IMG/VR virus record: IMGVR_UViG_2534681675_000013
Span: 1 to 39,954 of that record
Length of the DNA: 39,954 nucleotides
Source: a virus
Lineage: Duplodnaviria > Heunggongvirae > Uroviricota > Caudoviricetes
Reading direction: 5' to 3' (one strand)
Shown here: positions 4,504 through 37,931 of the stretch, one piece after another
Position numbering within the stretch: position 1 is the first letter of the stretch
Layout of the letters: every line of letters begins with the position of its first letter
The notes under the pieces: generated by a model
What the model saw: only the letters and a program-made list of their open reading frames with translations
What the model was told of the DNA's origin: nothing
Database searches by the model: none
Program-made: the position numbers and the translations under genes

Positions 4504-4986
4504 TTATTTGATAAGAAGTGAAGGTTTCCCAACTTTGAGTTGAGCGCCGGGGATATTTATTCCTGCTTTTAGCTGGTGTTTGATTGCCAGTTTGTCGGCT
4601 TTAATTGTCGTTTCAAACTCAACGTATTCAGGAGGAAGGGCGCTTGAGTCGATTATTTCTACAATTTCTGACGGTTTGCGAATTGTTACCTGGTGAATAC
4701 CTGCTCGAATCTTTTTCTTGCCAACCATTTCAAGCGATGACGCTATATACGCCATAATGCTGTCAATCTTATTTTGAATTACTGCGGCTCTCTCATTTAG
4801 TGACTTTGCCTCGTCCTTGAGGCGTTCAGCATAACCAGATTCATTTTTAATAATGGCAAGAAGTTGCTCTATTTTATCGGTAAATTCTCCTTCCATTCCT
4901 TCTATTGTGTCAGCAATCATCTCTGGCTCTAAATCTGAATCCATCAGCTTTGCGTATTCATTGACTATTTCATACAGTTTGCTCAC
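4504..4986 (-). CDS. Gp157-family-like protein adjacent to recombinase
   Basis: About 160 aa, acidic/coiled; lies immediately downstream of the RecT-like gene, where Gp157-type proteins usually sit; start taken at GTG after GGAGG. Confidence 0.45.
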   Translation of the reverse strand: MSKLYEIVNEYAKLMDSDLEPEMIADTIEGMEGEFTDKIEQLLAIIKNESGYAERLKDEAKSLNERAAVIQNKIDSIMAYIASSLEMVGKKKIRAGIHQVTIRKPSEIVEIIDSSALPPEYVEFETTIKADKLAIKHQLKAGINIPGAQLKVGKPSLLIK

Positions 4987-5881
4987 TGGCAACCTCCAGT
5001 TTCGCTTTGCATTCTATGTAAATGGCTTGTACGTTCTGCTGCAATTTCATTCCAGATGTCAGGCGATATGCTTCTGCAAAATATCGTTTCAAATCATCCA
5101 TGTTTTCTGCCTGAGCCATTTCATCACAAAGAAGTTGAGCTTTTTCCATAATTTCCTGCTGGCGTTTCCGTTCATCTTCGCGGATATCTTCCTCTGATTT
5201 GTGCGGCATAACTGGTTCAGTCCATACACCTTCTTCTTCGTTTAGTACGTGAATAGCACTATCAAGACGTGATGCCTTAGGCCAATACTTGCTTGCACGC
5301 TTTACGACCGTCTTTCGCGCCATCTCATTCCAGTGATTTACCCATGGTCCTTTATCTCTGAATGCCGCCTTGCTTGTTTTCCTTACAGCCTCAATTTCAG
5401 CCAGACTCATCTCTTCCGTTAGATAATCACCTGCTGGCGTCTTAACTGTGCAGTAAACGCCAACGATATCACCACGATCACCGAAGGCGTTGTATTTATG
5501 GGTTGGTGCTTTATCAAGCCCGTTTGACTCATAGGTATCGTTAGCATGAACAAGTTTTGCCTGACCCCATGAGATAACACCAGACTCCATTGCAATATGG
5601 AGCAATCCCATATAACTGATATCAAGGCACACCATGCCGTCGCGCGGAACCAGATAAGCCAGTTTGCTAGCCGGGTTTAAGGTGATGCCGATCGCCGCAA
5701 CATTGATGATGGCGTTCTGTGCGCTGGTTGGATTTTCCAGTGCTGTTTTAGCCAGGTAATCATTTTTCTGGAAATACTGAATTGCAAACTGGCTTTCCTT
5801 AGCCCATGTCACCGTCTGTTCAGTCAATGCTCCGCAGAATAACTGCTCTTGCTGTTTAACGAATTCAACGATATTGCTCAT
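4970..5881 (-). CDS. RecT-family single-strand annealing protein
   Basis: 303 aa; region AAIGITLNPASKLAYLVPRDG...LDISYMGLLHIAMESGVISW fits the RecT pattern as I recall it; occupies the position of lambda bet/exo. Confidence 0.7.
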   Translation of the reverse strand: MSNIVEFVKQQEQLFCGALTEQTVTWAKESQFAIQYFQKNDYLAKTALENPTSAQNAIINVAAIGITLNPASKLAYLVPRDGMVCLDISYMGLLHIAMESGVISWGQAKLVHANDTYESNGLDKAPTHKYNAFGDRGDIVGVYCTVKTPAGDYLTEEMSLAEIEAVRKTSKAAFRDKGPWVNHWNEMARKTVVKRASKYWPKASRLDSAIHVLNEEEGVWTEPVMPHKSEEDIREDERKRQQEIMEKAQLLCDEMAQAENMDDLKRYFAEAYRLTSGMKLQQNVQAIYIECKAKLEVASEQTV

Positions 5882-7446: not shown

Positions 7447-7773
7447 TCAAATAAGTTGTTTGCTGCCTAATTTCATTTTCTGGCGACCAACACAAGTCAC
7501 ACCCATTTCACTGCGTGGCTTGCTGTACCATGTGCGCTGATTCTTGCGCTCAATACGCTGCAGGTTGCTTTCAATCTGTTCGTGGTATTCAGCCAGCACC
7601 GTAAGGTCTATCGGATTCAGTGCGCTTTCTACTCGTGATTTCGGTTTGCGATTCAGCGAGAGAATAGGGCGGTTAACTGGTTTTGCGCTTACCCCAACCA
7701 ACAGGGGATTTGCTGCTTTCCATTGAGCCTGTTTCTCTGCGCGACGTTCGCGGCGGCGTGTTTGTGCATCCAT
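7447..7773 (-). CDS. N: Antiterminator N
   Basis: Internal start MDAQTRRRERRAEKQAQWKAANPLLVGVSAKPVNRP..., near-identical to lambda N as recalled (arginine-rich boxB-binding motif). Confidence 0.9.
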   Translation of the reverse strand: MDAQTRRRERRAEKQAQWKAANPLLVGVSAKPVNRPILSLNRKPKSRVESALNPIDLTVLAEYHEQIESNLQRIERKNQRTWYSKPRSEMGVTCVGRQKMKLGSKQLI

Positions 7774-7883
7774 CTGGATTCTCCTGTCAGTTAGCTTTGA
7801 GTAACGCGCCGTGATGCTTATCTCCACGGTTGCTGTCTTGCAGCTGCATTTCGCGCTACTCAAAGCCTTCTGCTTTGAATGCT

Positions 7884-7914: not shown

Positions 7915-7955
7915 TCACCTTCATGGTGGTCAGTGCGTCCTGCTGATGTGCTTAG

Positions 7956-8016
7956 TATCACCGCCAGTGGTATTTGTGTCAACACCGCCAGAGATAGTTT
8001 ATCACCGCAGATGGTT
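7956..8016 (-). promoter_or_regulatory. oL1-oL2-oL3 operators with pL
   Basis: TATCACCGCCAGTGGTA, CAACACCGCCAGAGATA and TATCACCGCAGATGGTT read directly; these are the canonical lambda oL half-site pairs. Confidence 0.85.
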
Positions 8017-8061: not shown

Positions 8062-8069
8062 GATTGGGA
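8062..8069. repeat. Left copy of 8-bp target-site duplication GATTGGGA
   Basis: GATTGGGA immediately precedes the IS left end and recurs immediately after the right end. Confidence 0.7.
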
Positions 8070-8154
8070 GTAAGCGTAAACCGACCGCCGTATGTAGCCA
8101 TTAGACAAGAATTGGTAACTTAGACGCCCATCTGACACAGACGGACATCTAAGT

Positions 8155-8574
8155 ATGGAATTACAGGACTGGCGAAAAGAACCTCGTAAAAAGTATTCGA
8201 ATGAATTCAAACTTCGTATGGTTGAACTGGCATCACAACCCGGTGCTTGTGTGGCTCAGATTGCACGAGAAAATGGCGTCAATGATAATGTTATTTTCAA
8301 ATGGCTCAGACTCTGGCAAAACGAAGGGCGTATATCACGGCGTCTTCCGGTGACAACCACTTCTGATGCAGGCCTTGAATTATTACCTGTAGAGATAACC
8401 TCTGATGAGCCGAAAGAACCGATGGCTGCTCTTACTCCGCCCTTATCCACTCAGACTACTGTCAGTGCCAGCTCCTGCAAGGTGGAGTTCCGTCACGGTA
8501 ACATGACGCTGGAAAATCCTTCACCAGAGCTGCTCACTGTATTGATTCGTGAACTGACCGGGAGGGGAAGATGA
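8155..8574 (+). CDS. tnpA: IS66 accessory protein TnpA (orf1)
   Basis: 139 aa, first ORF of the element; ATGA-coupled to the next ORF. Confidence 0.8.
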   Translation: MELQDWRKEPRKKYSNEFKLRMVELASQPGACVAQIARENGVNDNVIFKWLRLWQNEGRISRRLPVTTTSDAGLELLPVEITSDEPKEPMAALTPPLSTQTTVSASSCKVEFRHGNMTLENPSPELLTVLIRELTGRGR

Positions 8575-8920
8575 TCTCACTCCCATCCGGTACCCGTATC
8601 TGGCTCGTTGCCGGGATAACCGATATGCGTAAGTCTTTCAACGGGCTGGGTGAACAGGTACAGCATGTGTTAAATGTTAATCCCTTCTCCGGTCACCTGT
8701 TATCTTCCGTGGCCGACGGGGTGACACCGTTAAAATTCTTTGGGCTGATGCTGATGGTCTGTGCCTGTTCACCAAACGCCTGGAGGAAGGCCAGTTTATC
8801 TGGCCTGCGGTGCGTGACGGTAAGGTATCCATTACCCGCTCGCAACTGGCAATGCTCCTCGATAAGCTGGACTGGCGTCAGCCAAAAACATCCCGCCTTA
8901 ACGCCCTGACAATGTTGTAA
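8571..8920 (+). pseudogene. tnpB: IS66 TnpB (orf2), apparently frameshifted
   Basis: First 40 aa (MISLPSGTRIWLVAGITDMRKSFNGLGEQVQHVLNVNPFSGHL) are in one frame; the conserved C-terminus (...VKILWADADGLCLFTKRLEEGQFIWPAVRDGKVSITRSQLAMLLDKLDWRQPKTSRLNALTML) is in the +1 frame, consistent with a 1-nt deletion near 8700. Confidence 0.55.
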
Positions 8921-8950
8921 AAAACGCCTGGCCGCATTATAAAAACGGCC

Positions 8951-10543
8951 ATGAGTCAGAAATACCTCATTCGCATTGCAGAACTGGAAAGCCAGCTCCG
9001 TCAGAAAGACCAGCAACTGAGTCTGGTTGAAGAGACGGAGGCCTTCCTGCGCTCTGCACTGGCACGTGCCGAAGAAAAGATCGAAGAAGATGAACGGGAA
9101 ATAGAACATCTGCGGGCTCAGATAGAAAAACTGCGCCGGATGCTGTTCGGTACCCGTTCTGAAAAACTGCGTCGTGAAGTTGAACAGGCTGAGGCCCTGC
9201 TGAAACAACGCGAACAGGACAGCGATCGTTACAGTGGGCGGGAAGACGATCCACAGGTTCCCCGCCAGTTGCGACAGTCGCGCCATCGTCGTCCGTTACC
9301 GGCACACCTTCCCCGTGAAATACACCGTCTGGAGTCTGAAGAAAGTTGTTGCCCGGAATGTGGCGGCGAGCTGGATTATCTGGGGGAAGTCAGTACTGAG
9401 CAGCTGGAACTGGTGAGCAGCGCCCTGAAAGTGATCCGCACAGAACGGGTAAAAAAAGCCTGTACAAAATGTGACTGCATCATTGAAGCACCGGCGCCGT
9501 CCCGCCCGATAGAGCGTGGTATCGCGGGCCCCGGATTACTTGCCCGCGTGTTAACGGGAAAATACTGCGAACACCTGCCACTGTATCGTCAGAGTGAAAT
9601 CTTTGCCCGACAGGGTGTCGAACTGAGCCGTGCATTACTCTCCAACTGGGTTGACGCGTGCTGCCAGTTAATGATGCCGCTGAATGATGCCCTGTACCGT
9701 TATGTGATGAATACCCGCAAGCTTCACACTGACGACACACCGGTAAAGGTACTGGCACCGGGCTTGAAAAAGACGAAAACAGGGCGCATCTGGACGTATG
9801 TCCGGGATGATCGCAATGCGGGTTCGTCATCTCCTCCGGCGGTCTGGTTCGCGTACTCACCGAACCGGCAGGGGAAACACCCGGAGCAACACCTCCGCCC
9901 CTTCCGGGGTATCCTGCAGGCGGATGCGTTCACAGGTTATGACAGGCTGTTCAGTGCAGAACGTGAAGGTGGTGCGCTGACAGAAGTTGCGTGCTGGGCC
10001 CATGCCCGGAGAAAAATCCACGATGTATACATCAGCAGCAAAAGTGCGACGGCAGAAGAAGCCCTGAAGCGAATCAGTGAACTGTACGCCATCGAGGATG
10101 AAATACGGGGATTACCAGAGTCAGAGCGTCTTGCAGTCAGACAGCAGCGAAGCAAAGCGTTACTGACGTCGCTGCATGAATGGATGGTGGAGAAGAATGG
10201 CACGCTGTCGAAAAAATCCAGACTGGGCGAAGCGTTCAGCTATGTACTGAATCAGTGGGACGCCCTCTGTTATTACAGTGATGACGGACTGGCGGAGACG
10301 GACAATAACACAGCGGAAAGAGCGCTTCGTGCAGTCTGTCTTGGAAAGAAAAATTACGTGTTCTTCGGTAGCGATCACGGTGGCGAGCGTGGTGCACTGC
10401 TATACGGGCTGATCGGCACCTGCCGTCTGAACGGTATCGATCCGGAAGCGTATCTGCGCCATATTCTGAGCGTACTGCCGGAATGGCCCTCCAACCGTGT
10501 TGACGAACTCCTGCCATGGAACGTGGTTCTCACCAATAAATAA
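8951..10543 (+). CDS. tnpC: IS66 transposase TnpC
   Basis: 530 aa; cysteine cluster CPECGGEL...CTKCDC and a long conserved core typical of IS66 transposases. Confidence 0.9.
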   Translation: MSQKYLIRIAELESQLRQKDQQLSLVEETEAFLRSALARAEEKIEEDEREIEHLRAQIEKLRRMLFGTRSEKLRREVEQAEALLKQREQDSDRYSGREDDPQVPRQLRQSRHRRPLPAHLPREIHRLESEESCCPECGGELDYLGEVSTEQLELVSSALKVIRTERVKKACTKCDCIIEAPAPSRPIERGIAGPGLLARVLTGKYCEHLPLYRQSEIFARQGVELSRALLSNWVDACCQLMMPLNDALYRYVMNTRKLHTDDTPVKVLAPGLKKTKTGRIWTYVRDDRNAGSSSPPAVWFAYSPNRQGKHPEQHLRPFRGILQADAFTGYDRLFSAEREGGALTEVACWAHARRKIHDVYISSKSATAEEALKRISELYAIEDEIRGLPESERLAVRQQRSKALLTSLHEWMVEKNGTLSKKSRLGEAFSYVLNQWDALCYYSDDGLAETDNNTAERALRAVCLGKKNYVFFGSDHGGERGALLYGLIGTCRLNGIDPEAYLRHILSVLPEWPSNRVDELLPWNVVLTNK

Positions 10544-10573
10544 GCGTCAATACGGTGCTCCGTTGACGCTTAC

Positions 10574-10581
10574 GATTGGGA
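10574..10581. repeat. Right copy of 8-bp target-site duplication GATTGGGA
   Basis: Exact repeat of 8062-8069 directly after the IS right end. Confidence 0.7.
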
Positions 10582-10689
10582 AGGTGATCGAGAGATCTGA
10601 ATTGCGATGTTTAGTGAGTTGTATCTATTAATTTTCAAATAAATACAATTGGTTATGTGTTCTTGGGTGAGGGGGATCGTGAGGCAAAG

Positions 10690-10715
10690 AAAACCCGGCT
10701 CTGTGGCCGGGGTAT
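10690..10715 (-). terminator. Rho-independent terminator of the leftward cI operon
   Basis: Minus-strand hairpin CCCGGCCACAGAGCCGGG followed by a T-rich run, directly downstream of the gene at 10720-11562; the flanking sequence resembles the lambda region downstream of rexB. Confidence 0.6.
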
Positions 10716-10719
10716 GCAT

Positions 10720-11562
10720 TTATGGTTTTTTTTGGTCGTGCTTTGCTAGGGCTTTATGAGTTTTCTTAATGCTGCTTCTAACTTTCTGAATTTTTTCTTG
10801 GGAAAGTTTTATGTTTTCAGGGGCTGTTCCAGTGTTAGAAATCATTACATTGCGAACAGATCTCCCTACGGTCTCAGCAGCATTCTCTAGTTGAGACTGT
10901 CCCTTCAGGTTCTGGTTTCTGATTCTTGCTTCTGTCTGTGTAATTCTGAATATATTGGCCGCGAGCTCTTCGCTTCCCATGAAGTCAAGCATCGTTCCAT
11001 CTTTTTTAGTTAGGCCTTTTCGAGCTTTCAACTGTGAGAGATTCATATTGTACATCCCACGGTAGCCCGCATTTTGAAATAGACCATAGTCGACTACTCC
11101 GTGTTTATGGGCTACATGACTGAGAGTTTTCTCTCTAGATGTAATCTCGCCACGCAAATAAACTCGATTAACTGCGTCATGGTTATGATATGTAGTGTGT
11201 ATTTCTGCTGCGAGCCCAGCAAAATAAGCTTGTGCATTTGCAACTTTTTGATTGCTGATGTCACCATTCATTACAATCAGATAACAAGCGAAACGAGTTA
11301 ATTTAAAGTCATTTTTCGCATTTTCTGAAGGCATCTGGATGAAGTTATCGTATACAGGGATATCGAGGCTCACACATACAGATGTAGCTTTGTTGATGGC
11401 TTTCAATATCTGATCCATGCCATTATATCCAAGCATCATCGCTAAATCAGATGCAAACCAATAGGTAACACCGTTTTCTCTAGCGAAATCATCAAATGTT
11501 AACTGTGATGTGTCATCGAAAACAGTAATTTGCCTACTCATATCACACCCGAACTTACTCAT
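10720..11562 (-). CDS. DinD/RhuM-like protein with Bro-N-like N-terminus, in the lambda rexAB slot
   Basis: 280 aa; N-terminal YWFASDLAMMLGY fits the Bro-N pattern; central and C-terminal regions (GLFQNAGYRGMYN, SEELAANIFRITQTE) resemble DinD-family proteins as I recall them. Family call is from memory. Confidence 0.6.
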   Translation of the reverse strand: MSKFGCDMSRQITVFDDTSQLTFDDFARENGVTYWFASDLAMMLGYNGMDQILKAINKATSVCVSLDIPVYDNFIQMPSENAKNDFKLTRFACYLIVMNGDISNQKVANAQAYFAGLAAEIHTTYHNHDAVNRVYLRGEITSREKTLSHVAHKHGVVDYGLFQNAGYRGMYNMNLSQLKARKGLTKKDGTMLDFMGSEELAANIFRITQTEARIRNQNLKGQSQLENAAETVGRSVRNVMISNTGTAPENIKLSQEKIQKVRSSIKKTHKALAKHDQKKP

Positions 11563-11642
11563 CGATTTTCCCTTATATTAATATAATGTGGATAGTTTGT
11601 CGCCAACTCGCTAAAGTTATTCATTATGAGGTTTGCCATCCA

Positions 11643-12359
<717 letters not shown>

Positions 12360-12366
12360 TTAAATC

Positions 12367-12430
12367 TATCACCGCAAGGGATAAATATCTAACACCGTGC
12401 GTGTTGACTGTTTTACCTCTAGCGGTGATA
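12367..12430. promoter_or_regulatory. oR3-oR2-oR1 with divergent pRM and pR
   Basis: TATCACCGCAAGGGATA (oR3), TAACACCGTGCGTGTTG (oR2), TACCTCTAGCGGTGATA (oR1-like) plus TTGACT and GATAAT pR hexamers upstream of cro. Confidence 0.9.
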
Positions 12431-12447
12431 ATAGTTGCATGTACTAA

Positions 12448-12657
<210 letters not shown>

Positions 12658-12664
12658 ATAACCC

Positions 12665-12697
12665 CGCTCTTACACATCCCAGCCCTGAAAAAGGGCA
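12665..12697 (+). promoter_or_regulatory. nutR (boxA and boxB)
   Basis: CGCTCTTA followed by the hairpin AGCCCTGAAAAAGGGCA between cro and cII. Confidence 0.7.
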
Positions 12698-12775
12698 TCA
12701 AATTAAACCACACCTATGGTGTATGCATTTATTTGCATACATTCAATCAATTGTTATCTAAGGAAATACTTACAT

Positions 12776-18757: not shown

Positions 18758-18832
18758 GGGTTAGTCGTATAAAGGTCATTACGGAAGGCTGTTAACCTTC
18801 TTATCGTGGTTCGAGTCCACGCTGTCCCGCCA
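18758..18832 (+). tRNA. tRNA-like gene, anticodon GTT (Asn), one acceptor-stem mismatch
   Basis: Hand-folded cloverleaf: anticodon stem GAAGG/CCTTC with loop CTGTTAA, T-arm CGTGG-TTCGAGT-CCACG, 3' CCA encoded; acceptor stem GGGTTAG/CTGTCCC has one T-T mismatch. Coordinates within 1-2 nt. Confidence 0.5.
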
Positions 18833-18837
18833 AACAT

Positions 18838-18913
18838 GCTGGTTTAGCTCCAATGGTAGAGCGGTCGCCTTGTAAGCGAATGGGTAGCGGTTCAAGTCCG
18901 TTAACCAGCACCA
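18838..18913 (+). tRNA. tRNA-like gene, anticodon TGT (Thr)
   Basis: Hand-folded: perfect 7-bp acceptor stem GCTGGTT/AACCAGC, D-arm GCTC-CAATGGTA-GAGC, anticodon loop CTTGTAA, T-arm AGCGG-TTCAAGT-CCGTT, discriminator A plus CCA. Confidence 0.55.
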
Positions 18914-34926: not shown

Positions 34927-35316
34927 CTAACATTTTCTTTTTACTTTTCCAACAAAAGCTTTGGTTGAATCCATATTTCCATAACCGGAAATGGTTTTTG
35001 ACATTAAAACTGTTCCAGTAGGATGTATTACCCATGAGTCGATAACGCGTTGAGTTTCGCCATTCGCGCCGATTCCTATGATGGAGTTTTTAGACAATGC
35101 TTTGTAAGCCATGCCGCCCGCATCTGTCCCAGAATATGTGATGCTGGCATCTTCACCGCTTGTCTTAATGATGAATGTTCCACTAAAACCATCTTCTTCC
35201 GGATGGAAATTATTTCGTTCTGAATAGCTTATTCCGCGCATATCTCCAACGACCCAGCACTCTGCTGTAGCCCCAAAAGATATGAATAAGAACATAGCAG
35301 CAAGAAATTGCTTCAC
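34927..35316 (-). CDS. Small secreted protein (about 130 aa), cargo in the sieA slot
   Basis: GTG start after AGGAGG; predicted signal peptide VKQFLAAMFLFISFGATA with cleavage before ECW; cysteines near both ends of the mature protein; opposite strand to the virion genes. Confidence 0.5.
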   Translation of the reverse strand: MKQFLAAMFLFISFGATAECWVVGDMRGISYSERNNFHPEEDGFSGTFIIKTSGEDASITYSGTDAGGMAYKALSKNSIIGIGANGETQRVIDSWVIHPTGTVLMSKTISGYGNMDSTKAFVGKVKRKC

Positions 35317-35379
35317 ACCAACCTCCTTAGTTTTGAGCAGGATACCAGATGATAATGTGTAGTTGGAGTAGCGCGGTTG

Positions 35380-35452
35380 TAATGCAAGCATTTTGTTTTA
35401 GTTTTATGCTTGCTTGTATGTGTGCACAGTGTATATAATGCAAGCATAAATC
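35380..35452 (+). promoter_or_regulatory. Divergent intergenic region with sigma70-like promoter (TTGCTT-18-TATAAT) flanked by ATGCAAGCAT-type repeats
   Basis: -35/-10 hexamers read directly upstream of the 35473 start; three copies of a near-palindromic ATGCAAGCAT/ATGCTTGC motif around them. Confidence 0.35.
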
Positions 35453-36960: not shown

Positions 36961-37028
36961 AGTTGAAGCCCCAACTGCGGGAACAGTCAGGGCTTCGGTT
37001 GTCAGTAAATCTGTGGAGAAAAACCAAC

Positions 37029-37931
37029 ATGAATAGTATAGCAATTTTAGAAGCAGTGAACACCTCTTACGTACCATTCAACGGTCAGCAAATTATCACC
37101 GCCATGGCTGCCGGAGTTGCATATGTTGCGATGAAGCCAATCGTTGAAAACCTTGGAATGAGCTGGTCAACGCAGCAAACAAAACTCATGAAGCAGATTA
37201 GCAAATTCAACTGTGTTCATATGAACATGGTTGCCGCTGATGGTAAGCTTCGTAAGCTACTCTGCCTTCCTTTGAAGAAGTTAAATGGATGGCTGTTCAG
37301 CATCAACCCTGAGAAAGTTCGTGCTGACATCCGCGATAAACTGATTCAGTACCAGGAAGAATGCTTTACTGTGCTGCATGACTACTGGACAAAGGGAAAG
37401 GCAGAAAATGCACGTAAGAAAACATCTGTTGATGACAGGACTCCACTTCGTGATGCTGTAAATATGCTAGTCAGCAAAAAGCATCTAATGTACCCAGAAG
37501 CTTATGCAATGATTCATCAGCGTTTCAATGTGGAAAGTATTGAAGAGCTTGATGCATCTCAGATACCGCAAGCTGTAGAGTACATCCACAGGGTAGTGCT
37601 TGAAGGTGAGTTCATCGGTAAACAAGAGAGGAAAACCAACGAGCTTTCTGCAAAAGAAGCAAACAGCCTTGTATGGTTATGGGATTATGCCAACCGCTCA
37701 CAGGCATTATTCCGCGAACTGTATCCGGCATTAAAACAAATTCAATCTAACTATTCCGGCAGATGCTACGACTACGGTCATGAGTTTTCGTATGTTATCG
37801 GGATGGCGAGAGACGTTTTAATAAACCACACACGAGATGTTGATATTAATGAGCCAGACGGACCAACGAATCTTTCCGCATGGATGAGACTTAAGAATAA
37901 AGAATTACCTCCTTCAGTACATAACTACTGA
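37029..37931 (+). CDS. ant: Antirepressor Ant
   Basis: Internal start [43 protein letters not shown]... (300 aa), position and length of P22 Ant. Confidence 0.85.

Follow-up and report, generated by a model that had tools for sequence, protein, structure and literature searches.

The DNA analysed here (the whole of IMG/VR virus record IMGVR_UViG_2534681675_000013, 39,954 nucleotides, hereafter the window) is a P22-like prophage that is almost complete and has the immunity of lambda. Lambda itself carries rexA and rexB between cI and oL, with 1575 bp from the cI stop codon to oL3. In the window, one gene for a DinD-like protein of 280 amino acids (aa) stands in place of rexAB. The features of this locus, with the open reading frames (ORFs) that define it, are the following.

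10720..11562, minus strand: DinD-family/Bro-N gene, an ORF of 280 aa with an ATG start
11643..12356, minus strand: lambda-type cI repressor gene, an ORF of 237 aa directly upstream of the DinD-like gene
11563..11642, minus strand: 80-bp spacer from cI to the gene, with a Shine-Dalgarno sequence AAGGGA (11569-11574), a -10-like element TATATTAATAT (11575-11585) and a -35-like element TTGGCG (11601-11606)
10694..10711, minus strand: intrinsic terminator of the Timm type, directly 3' of the DinD-like ORF, which closes the unit
11233..11478, minus strand: Bro-N domain (residues 29-110), the acidic, winged-helix-like N-terminal domain
10813..11172, minus strand: conserved basic helical C-terminal domain (residues 131-250), with the motifs FQNAGYRGMYNMN and LDFMGxEELAANxFRxTQTE
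10723-10812, minus strand: lysine-rich tail of the DinD-like protein, after the basic helical domain
12367..12430, no strand assigned: oR3-oR2-oR1 with pRM and pR (operator half-sites and a pR-like promoter)
7954..8016, no strand assigned: oL1-oL2-oL3, exact lambda operator sequences

The cI-cro DNA is 98.7% identical to that of lambda, and the homology to lambda DNA ends precisely at the cI stop codon. The terminator (10711..10694 on the minus strand) is the sole terminator-like site in the interval 10500-12700 and falls inside a stretch that aligns to the segment of HK244, a phage of lambda immunity, with the annotated Timm. These results bear out an earlier note on this DNA, which had described cI and oL as lambda-type and had placed a 280-aa gene on the cI strand in the rexAB position, ending at the terminator. 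The marks by which morons are recognised are also present: the gene has its own terminator, its GC content deviates (39.9% against 47.6% for the window) and the slot that it occupies is filled differently in related phages. Because of its low GC content, its own terminator and a promoter evident in its relatives (described below), the gene can be classed, as far as sequence goes, as a moron-type accessory cassette.

Bro-N (PF02498) is the only Pfam match of the DinD-like protein (33.6 bits against a gathering threshold of 25.6, E 6.3e-8, residues 29-110), and the motif YWFASDLAMMLGY occupies residues 34-46. The NCBIfam DinD model NF008573 is matched at E 1.4e-58 with 257 of the 280 residues covered, at a score (198.6 bits) that misses the equivalog cut-off of 242. 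By BLASTP, the protein is 33% identical to K-12 DinD over 258 residues (E 9e-44, residues 30-270 against 17-273). It is thus best regarded as a DinD homologue rather than an equivalog. The Bro-N and DinD parts of the domain assignment made in the earlier note therefore stand. The RhuM part does not, there being no Pfam match to RhuM (PF13310) at E <= 1. CDD gives dinD and RhuM hits jointly in some proteins embedded in restriction-modification (R-M) loci (PMC9881135), and a distant relation between the two families may exist. Compared with E. coli DinD (PcsA), the present protein has the same two-domain architecture and is colinear, with extra N-terminal residues and the lysine-rich tail as differences. 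It also matches PHROG 8036 (E 3e-147), a family whose function is listed as unknown. The family is broad, with 2393 matches at E <= 1e-5.

Five PADLOC families are matched by the protein, with no Rex or BstA model among them. One of them is PDC-S13 (PDLC04919; E 2.1e-86, residues 17-279), which K-12 DinD matches even better (E 2.4e-121); PDC-S13 is therefore in effect the DinD family. As a side observation, DinD proteins (K-12 DinD, E 3e-114) align to positions 6-276 of the PADLOC model PDLC03083 ('Specificity_I', 717 positions, for the type I specificity subunit), which therefore seems to begin with a DinD-like segment. Either some DinD proteins occur fused to HsdS or PDLC03083 will mislabel DinD proteins as HsdS.

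Conservation within the protein is highest in the C-terminal two-thirds, and the invariant residues include R90, R133, R137, R206, R237 and K266. No nuclease or NTPase motif was recognised by eye among the invariant columns. Charge is unevenly distributed, with a net charge of -6 in the N-terminal 130 residues, +6 in residues 131-250 and +8 in the tail. The ratio of nonsynonymous to synonymous substitution (dN/dS) is 0.014-0.02 against relatives with 95% protein and 84-86% DNA identity, a comparison in which synonymous sites are close to saturation. Constraint on the protein is very strong.

A public assembly collection has exactly this protein in 973 of its blocks; among the matches listed, the gene always stands between N and a repressor of the cI type (HTH_3 plus Peptidase_S24). 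Two types of repressor are found beside it: one of 231 or 256 aa, and the lambda-type cI of 237 aa with Cro (L008 and L012 in our numbering of loci). The combination of a lambda-type cI with the DinD-like gene was not found in the complete RefSeq E. coli genomes or phage records searched and is present in these two loci of the wider collection. A block of the window at 10590-12053, reaching from beyond the terminator to the middle of cI, is shared at 97% identity with prophages of another immunity type, among them that of enteropathogenic E. coli E2348/69 (the loci L001 and L007 were used for the comparison). Since the shared block ends in the middle of cI, the S24 half of cI, the DinD-like gene and the terminator travel as one recombination module, and the DNA-binding half of cI is exchanged.

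Further away, the association with repressors continues. The homologue in Yersinia prophages (81% identity) keeps its position, that of Pasteurella phage Pmp14 (66%) comes directly after a CI-like repressor, and that of a Microbulbifer prophage (51%) follows an HTH_3 repressor. We sampled 80 loci on IMG/VR contigs, a set restricted to viral contigs and to the nearest relatives (45-100% identity), and clustered their nearest upstream same-strand ORFs at 80% identity. Among the resulting 50 groups of upstream neighbours, Peptidase_S24 was found in 29 and HTH_3 in 30, and these repressors differ greatly from one another (mean column identity 11%). Other settings are also used: homologues lie beside the first gene of streptococcal satellites (the int position), adjoin int in a P2-like prophage, adjoin AbiTii in one case, and occur in the early region of Riemerella phages.

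How the gene is expressed can be judged in part from its flanks. No terminator separates cI from the DinD-like gene, so that transcripts from pRM or pRE could read through into it. In addition, the gene seems to possess a promoter of its own. In upstream regions taken from relatives with at least 60% identity, an extended -10 element (TGnTAnnnT) lies just before the ribosome-binding site in 18 of the 29 distinct regions, against a mean of 3.2 and a maximum of 9 in shuffled controls. Several other relatives carry TTGACT-17-TACAAT, and in some a terminator-like hairpin precedes the promoter. The dependence on co-transcription with cI that the earlier note envisaged is weakened by these strong promoters and upstream hairpins. 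In many prophages (L030, L034, L035, L038, L051 and L056-L080), the extended -10 element lies only ~9-20 nt before the ATG; the transcript would be near leaderless and might lack a Shine-Dalgarno sequence, like cI mRNA made from pRM. A GC-rich hairpin was seen just upstream in several loci (e.g. L060, L063 and L065).

Chromosomal dinD is regulated by LexA. In agreement with the earlier note, our scan of the upstream spacer for CTGT-N8-ACAG found no LexA box at <=1 mismatch; the only site with one mismatch near the gene falls inside the ORF, and the count across the window is at the frequency expected by chance. The SOS response should therefore not switch this gene on, unlike chromosomal dinD. 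A search for repeats or aba-like elements near the gene found only short repeats at chance level and a 14-bp AT palindrome overlapping the -10-like element. No Rfam family is matched near the gene, the matches in the window being a sar RNA and two tRNAs elsewhere.

An AlphaFold2 model, made from a 32-sequence alignment and no templates, has a mean predicted local distance difference test score (pLDDT) of 81.2. When this model was compared with the PDB by Foldseek, five matches were obtained at E <= 0.001, and all five are chains of DdrC from Deinococcus radiodurans. The best (E 1.9e-5, probability 1.0) extends over ~220-237 columns, essentially the whole of DdrC, and a sixth DdrC chain follows at E 6.6e-3. 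The predicted fold is thus the two-domain fold of DdrC. A viral structure library gave weaker matches, several of them full-length, and the proteins matched there bear the names KilA-N, Bro-N, 'repressor domain' and 'regulatory protein'.

DdrC is induced by damage and forms a homodimer; its N-terminal domain is a winged helix with an acidic surface, and its C-terminal domain is a four-helix bundle. It can hold a pair of nicks or a pair of double-strand ends, converts linear DNA to circles and makes nicked DNA more compact (PMC9303277, PMC11347143). According to PMC11347143, no sequence homologs can be identified beyond Deinococcus; according to PMC9303277, structural homologues are not known either. 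Our literature search found no relevant paper linking DdrC with DinD. The acidic N-terminal domain of DdrC (PMC9303277) has a parallel in the charge pattern of the DinD-like protein. DdrC itself (PDB 7qvb, 7udi and 8u0g) is an asymmetric, domain-swapped dimer that binds two nicks or ends, whereas the present protein is likened to it by its predicted single-chain fold.

The slot in which the gene lies has precedents. The cI-N interval is a known mosaic hotspot, in which RexAB and the abortive-infection protein BstA share synteny (PMC8585504, citing Degnan 2007). The slot argument of the earlier note is upheld, and the gene follows cI-type repressors across many unrelated immunity types. Between the same lambda-type flanks, HK244, HK97 and HK544 carry other cargo; so does E. 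coli D5, where a BstA-like KilA-N protein occupies the slot beside a lambda-type cI. The D5 locus (L103), a sister prophage that likewise has lambda immunity, carries this KilA-N gene and, beyond N, a gene of the SieB family (406-888 and 1647-2408), and illustrates the dense packing of exclusion genes in the cI-N region.

RexAB occupies the same cI-to-oL position on the cI strand and likewise ends at Timm. It consists of two genes, reported to encode a sensor and a membrane ion channel (PMC8585504), whereas a single gene is present here; no membrane-protein feature was noted in the DinD-like protein, on which no transmembrane prediction was run. BstA of prophage BTP1 is closer in layout, being a single gene directly after the repressor, with its own terminator and with a KilA-N/Bro-N-type N-terminal domain followed by a C-terminal domain (PMC8585504). 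Homology was not detected, however: hhalign gives a probability of 0.3% when the BstA-like protein from E. coli D5 is compared, and the PADLOC BstA model is not matched. Defence by BstA is proven, whereas a role for the DinD-like protein is inferred. In contrast to E. coli DinD, which is encoded by a chromosomal SOS gene, the present gene is carried by a prophage beside cI, with a constitutive-type promoter in its relatives.

The PADLOC match adds a second line of association with defence and lends indirect support to the exclusion role that the earlier note proposed. The 145 PDC classes are candidates, picked because their members lie within loci for BREX, DISARM or type I R-M (bioRxiv 10.1101/2024.01.29.577857), and the present protein matches the PDC-S13 hidden Markov model over its full length from a prophage immunity region. 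DinD genes have also been described within type I R-M loci (PMC9881135; bioRxiv 10.64898/2026.01.10.698759). The name 'PDC-S13' was not found in the searchable literature, and the terms DinD, Bro-N and KilA were not found in the main text of the DefensePredictor paper.

The rest of the prophage supplies context for the locus. Its closest record is phage IME10 (95%), and it combines a lambda immC with a P22 immI and P22-like virion genes. The other features are as follows.

1-1074: integrase
4970-5881: RecT
7447-7863: N
8070..10573, plus strand: IS66-family insertion with three ORFs and the target duplication GATTGGGA, outside the gene unit
36963-37931: P22-type Ant, with P22_AR_N/C domains
From 38011: tailspike

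In the immI region (36961-37931), a sar antisense RNA (Rfam, 92 bits) overlaps the start of the Ant gene. The DinD-like gene was considered as the phage's own antirepressor and rejected, P22-type Ant and sar being already present in immI. The two tRNA genes lie at 18758-18910. Between the virion genes and immI, a 154-aa ORF on the minus strand (34927-35391), which has no Pfam match, may be another accessory gene.

The IS66-family element, which the earlier note does not mention, is 2.5 kb long and sets oL1-3 apart from the terminator. Its transposase ORF matches Pfam DDE_Tnp_IS66 at E 8.6e-98, and the 8-bp target duplication GATTGGGA is found at 8062-8069 and 10574-10581. An allele free of the element (L008, AP025754.1) is 99.9% identical to the window on the left flank and 100% on the right, and the two alignments overlap by 8 bp. 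The element is therefore a recent, simple insertion, and it leaves the DinD-like gene untouched. It widens the span from oL1 to oR1 from ~2.0 kb to ~4.5 kb, and the longer distance could weaken cI-mediated looping between oL and oR. The oR sequence equals the annotated oR of HK244 except for one base in the oR2-oR1 spacer. Within it, oR1 (12414-12430) reads TACCTCTAGCGGTGATA, and HK244 carries the same eighth base as the window. In lambda oR1 this base is G, and the base seen here is thus a natural variant among wild phages of lambda immunity.

What might such a gene do for its phage? We tentatively favour a role in single-gene defence against superinfection, in place of RexAB or BstA, a possibility suggested by analogy with the precedents for the slot and by the association of PDC-S13 with R-M loci. 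The protein would be a non-enzymatic, probably dimeric member of the DinD family, composed of an acidic winged-helix domain of the Bro-N type, a basic helical domain that is very conserved, and a tail rich in lysine. In the lysogen it would be made by read-through from pRM, from its own promoter, or both. It could then bind DNA ends, nicks or RecA-bound joint molecules on entering or replicating DNA, and, once bound, could hinder the circularisation or the recombination-dependent replication of superinfecting phages. Speculatively, self might be told from non-self because incoming genomes are linear and have two ends, while the resident prophage leaves as a circle and has its own RecT. A more far-reaching version would make the DinD family a widespread counterpart of DdrC: a non-enzymatic sensor of ends and nicks. 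Type I R-M loci, satellites and temperate phages would each employ it as a single-gene defence, to block the circularisation or recombinational rescue of incoming linear or nicked DNA, or of DNA broken by restriction, and to spare the circular prophage. This general form we regard as unlikely.

Several observations weigh against the defence role and against the structural analogy behind it. PDC-S13 is a class of candidates only, and guilt by location is weak evidence. Several homologues occur in ordinary chromosomal contexts without a nearby mobile element, as E. coli dinD does. The extreme conservation of the protein is unusual for the sensors of an arms race and fits a housekeeping-like interaction equally well. 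The -10-like element of the window itself (TATATTAATAT) lacks the TG of its relatives and was not called by the consensus scan. Full-length TM-scores against DdrC are only 0.31-0.48, since the two domains are oriented differently to each other. Searched with HMMER, two profiles of the family (A1 and A3) returned chance hits only from the PDB, with no DdrC chain at E <= 10; the link between DinD and DdrC is therefore one of fold, with homology not yet demonstrated. Moreover, DdrC brings DNA ends together, and a protein acting in the same way could aid circularisation instead of hindering it. Finally, deletion of a dinD-like gene and the regulatory genes from a pneumococcal island had no large effect on transformation (PMC10602874).

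Rather than exclude phages, the protein might moderate recombination or DNA damage to the benefit of the lysogen, by removing RecA from duplex or joint-molecule DNA in the manner of DinD or by holding breaks in the manner of DdrC, and this is the main rival to defence, somewhat doubtful as it seems to us. With the protein made constitutively from the prophage, the lysogen would gain from fewer RecA-driven rearrangements among the many similar prophages of a cell or from a greater tolerance of damage and, indirectly, from less SOS signalling and less spontaneous prophage induction. The alignment with K-12 DinD over 258 residues, the DdrC-like predicted fold and the homologues in plain chromosomal contexts all agree with such a role. 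So does the very strong purifying selection, as would be expected if the target were a conserved cellular partner, for example RecA, or a DNA structure of a generic kind. The phage has its own RecT and so does not itself depend on RecA. DinD is counted among the proteins that remove RecA filaments (PMC4849656, citing Uranga 2011); removal of RecA from duplex or joint-molecule DNA is a property known for E. coli DinD only (Uranga 2011, as cited by PMC4849656 and PMC10602874). A moderator leaves unexplained, however, the recurrence of the family within type I R-M, BREX and DISARM loci and in the cargo slots of satellites and prophages; the selective gain for the phage would be indirect, and the pneumococcal deletion had little effect on transformation. 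Uranga's study of 2011 is, to go by its title, concerned with postsynaptic RecA filaments; those on single-stranded DNA, which bring about cI cleavage, are reportedly not affected. One would therefore not expect induction to be altered directly, and the proposal of the earlier note that the gene modulates RecA-dependent induction loses ground.

Two further explanations are less likely. As an antirepressor or transcription regulator, the protein would act on the repressors of other prophages or incoming phages, or on specific DNA sites. Its position in the immunity region would suit this, as would its Bro-N domain (Bro-N proteins are often annotated in this way) and the names of the viral-library Foldseek matches (KilA-N, 'repressor domain' and 'regulatory protein'). 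It is nonetheless quite unlikely: Pfam finds no ANT, KilAC or P22_AR domain in the protein, the N-terminal domain is acidic, the best-conserved part is the DinD-type C-terminal domain common to chromosomal dinD, and an antirepressor made constitutively together with cI would be hazardous unless aimed only at other repressors. The gene might instead be a passenger without a current role, linked to the module of the cI C-terminal half and the terminator, all of which are spanned by the 97%-identical block at 10590-12053. This is very improbable, being contradicted by the dN/dS of 0.014-0.02 with synonymous sites near saturation, by a gene that is intact and identical in the 973 blocks of the collection, by a promoter conserved in its relatives and by the use of the same slot with dozens of unrelated repressors.

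That DinD-family proteins (as PDC-S13) are candidates for defence and that the cI-N slot is a hotspot was already known. New relative to the papers searched are the breadth of the synteny between repressors and DinD, the conserved private promoter, and the match in fold between DinD and DdrC. Should a defence function be confirmed, a third system, consisting of a single gene and differing in mechanism, would be added to those of the rexAB slot, and PADLOC PDC-S13 would be validated. The exact protein is very common (973 blocks). The DdrC fold match, regardless of defence, joins two literatures that were found unconnected in the papers searched, that on DinD as a modulator of RecA and that on DdrC as a sensor of breaks. 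It leads to a biochemical hypothesis for the whole DinD family, namely the paired binding of nicks or ends, and to an idea of how a prophage might distinguish linear DNA that enters the cell from its own genome, which is circular. A positive outcome would matter for both phage defence and the biology of DNA repair.

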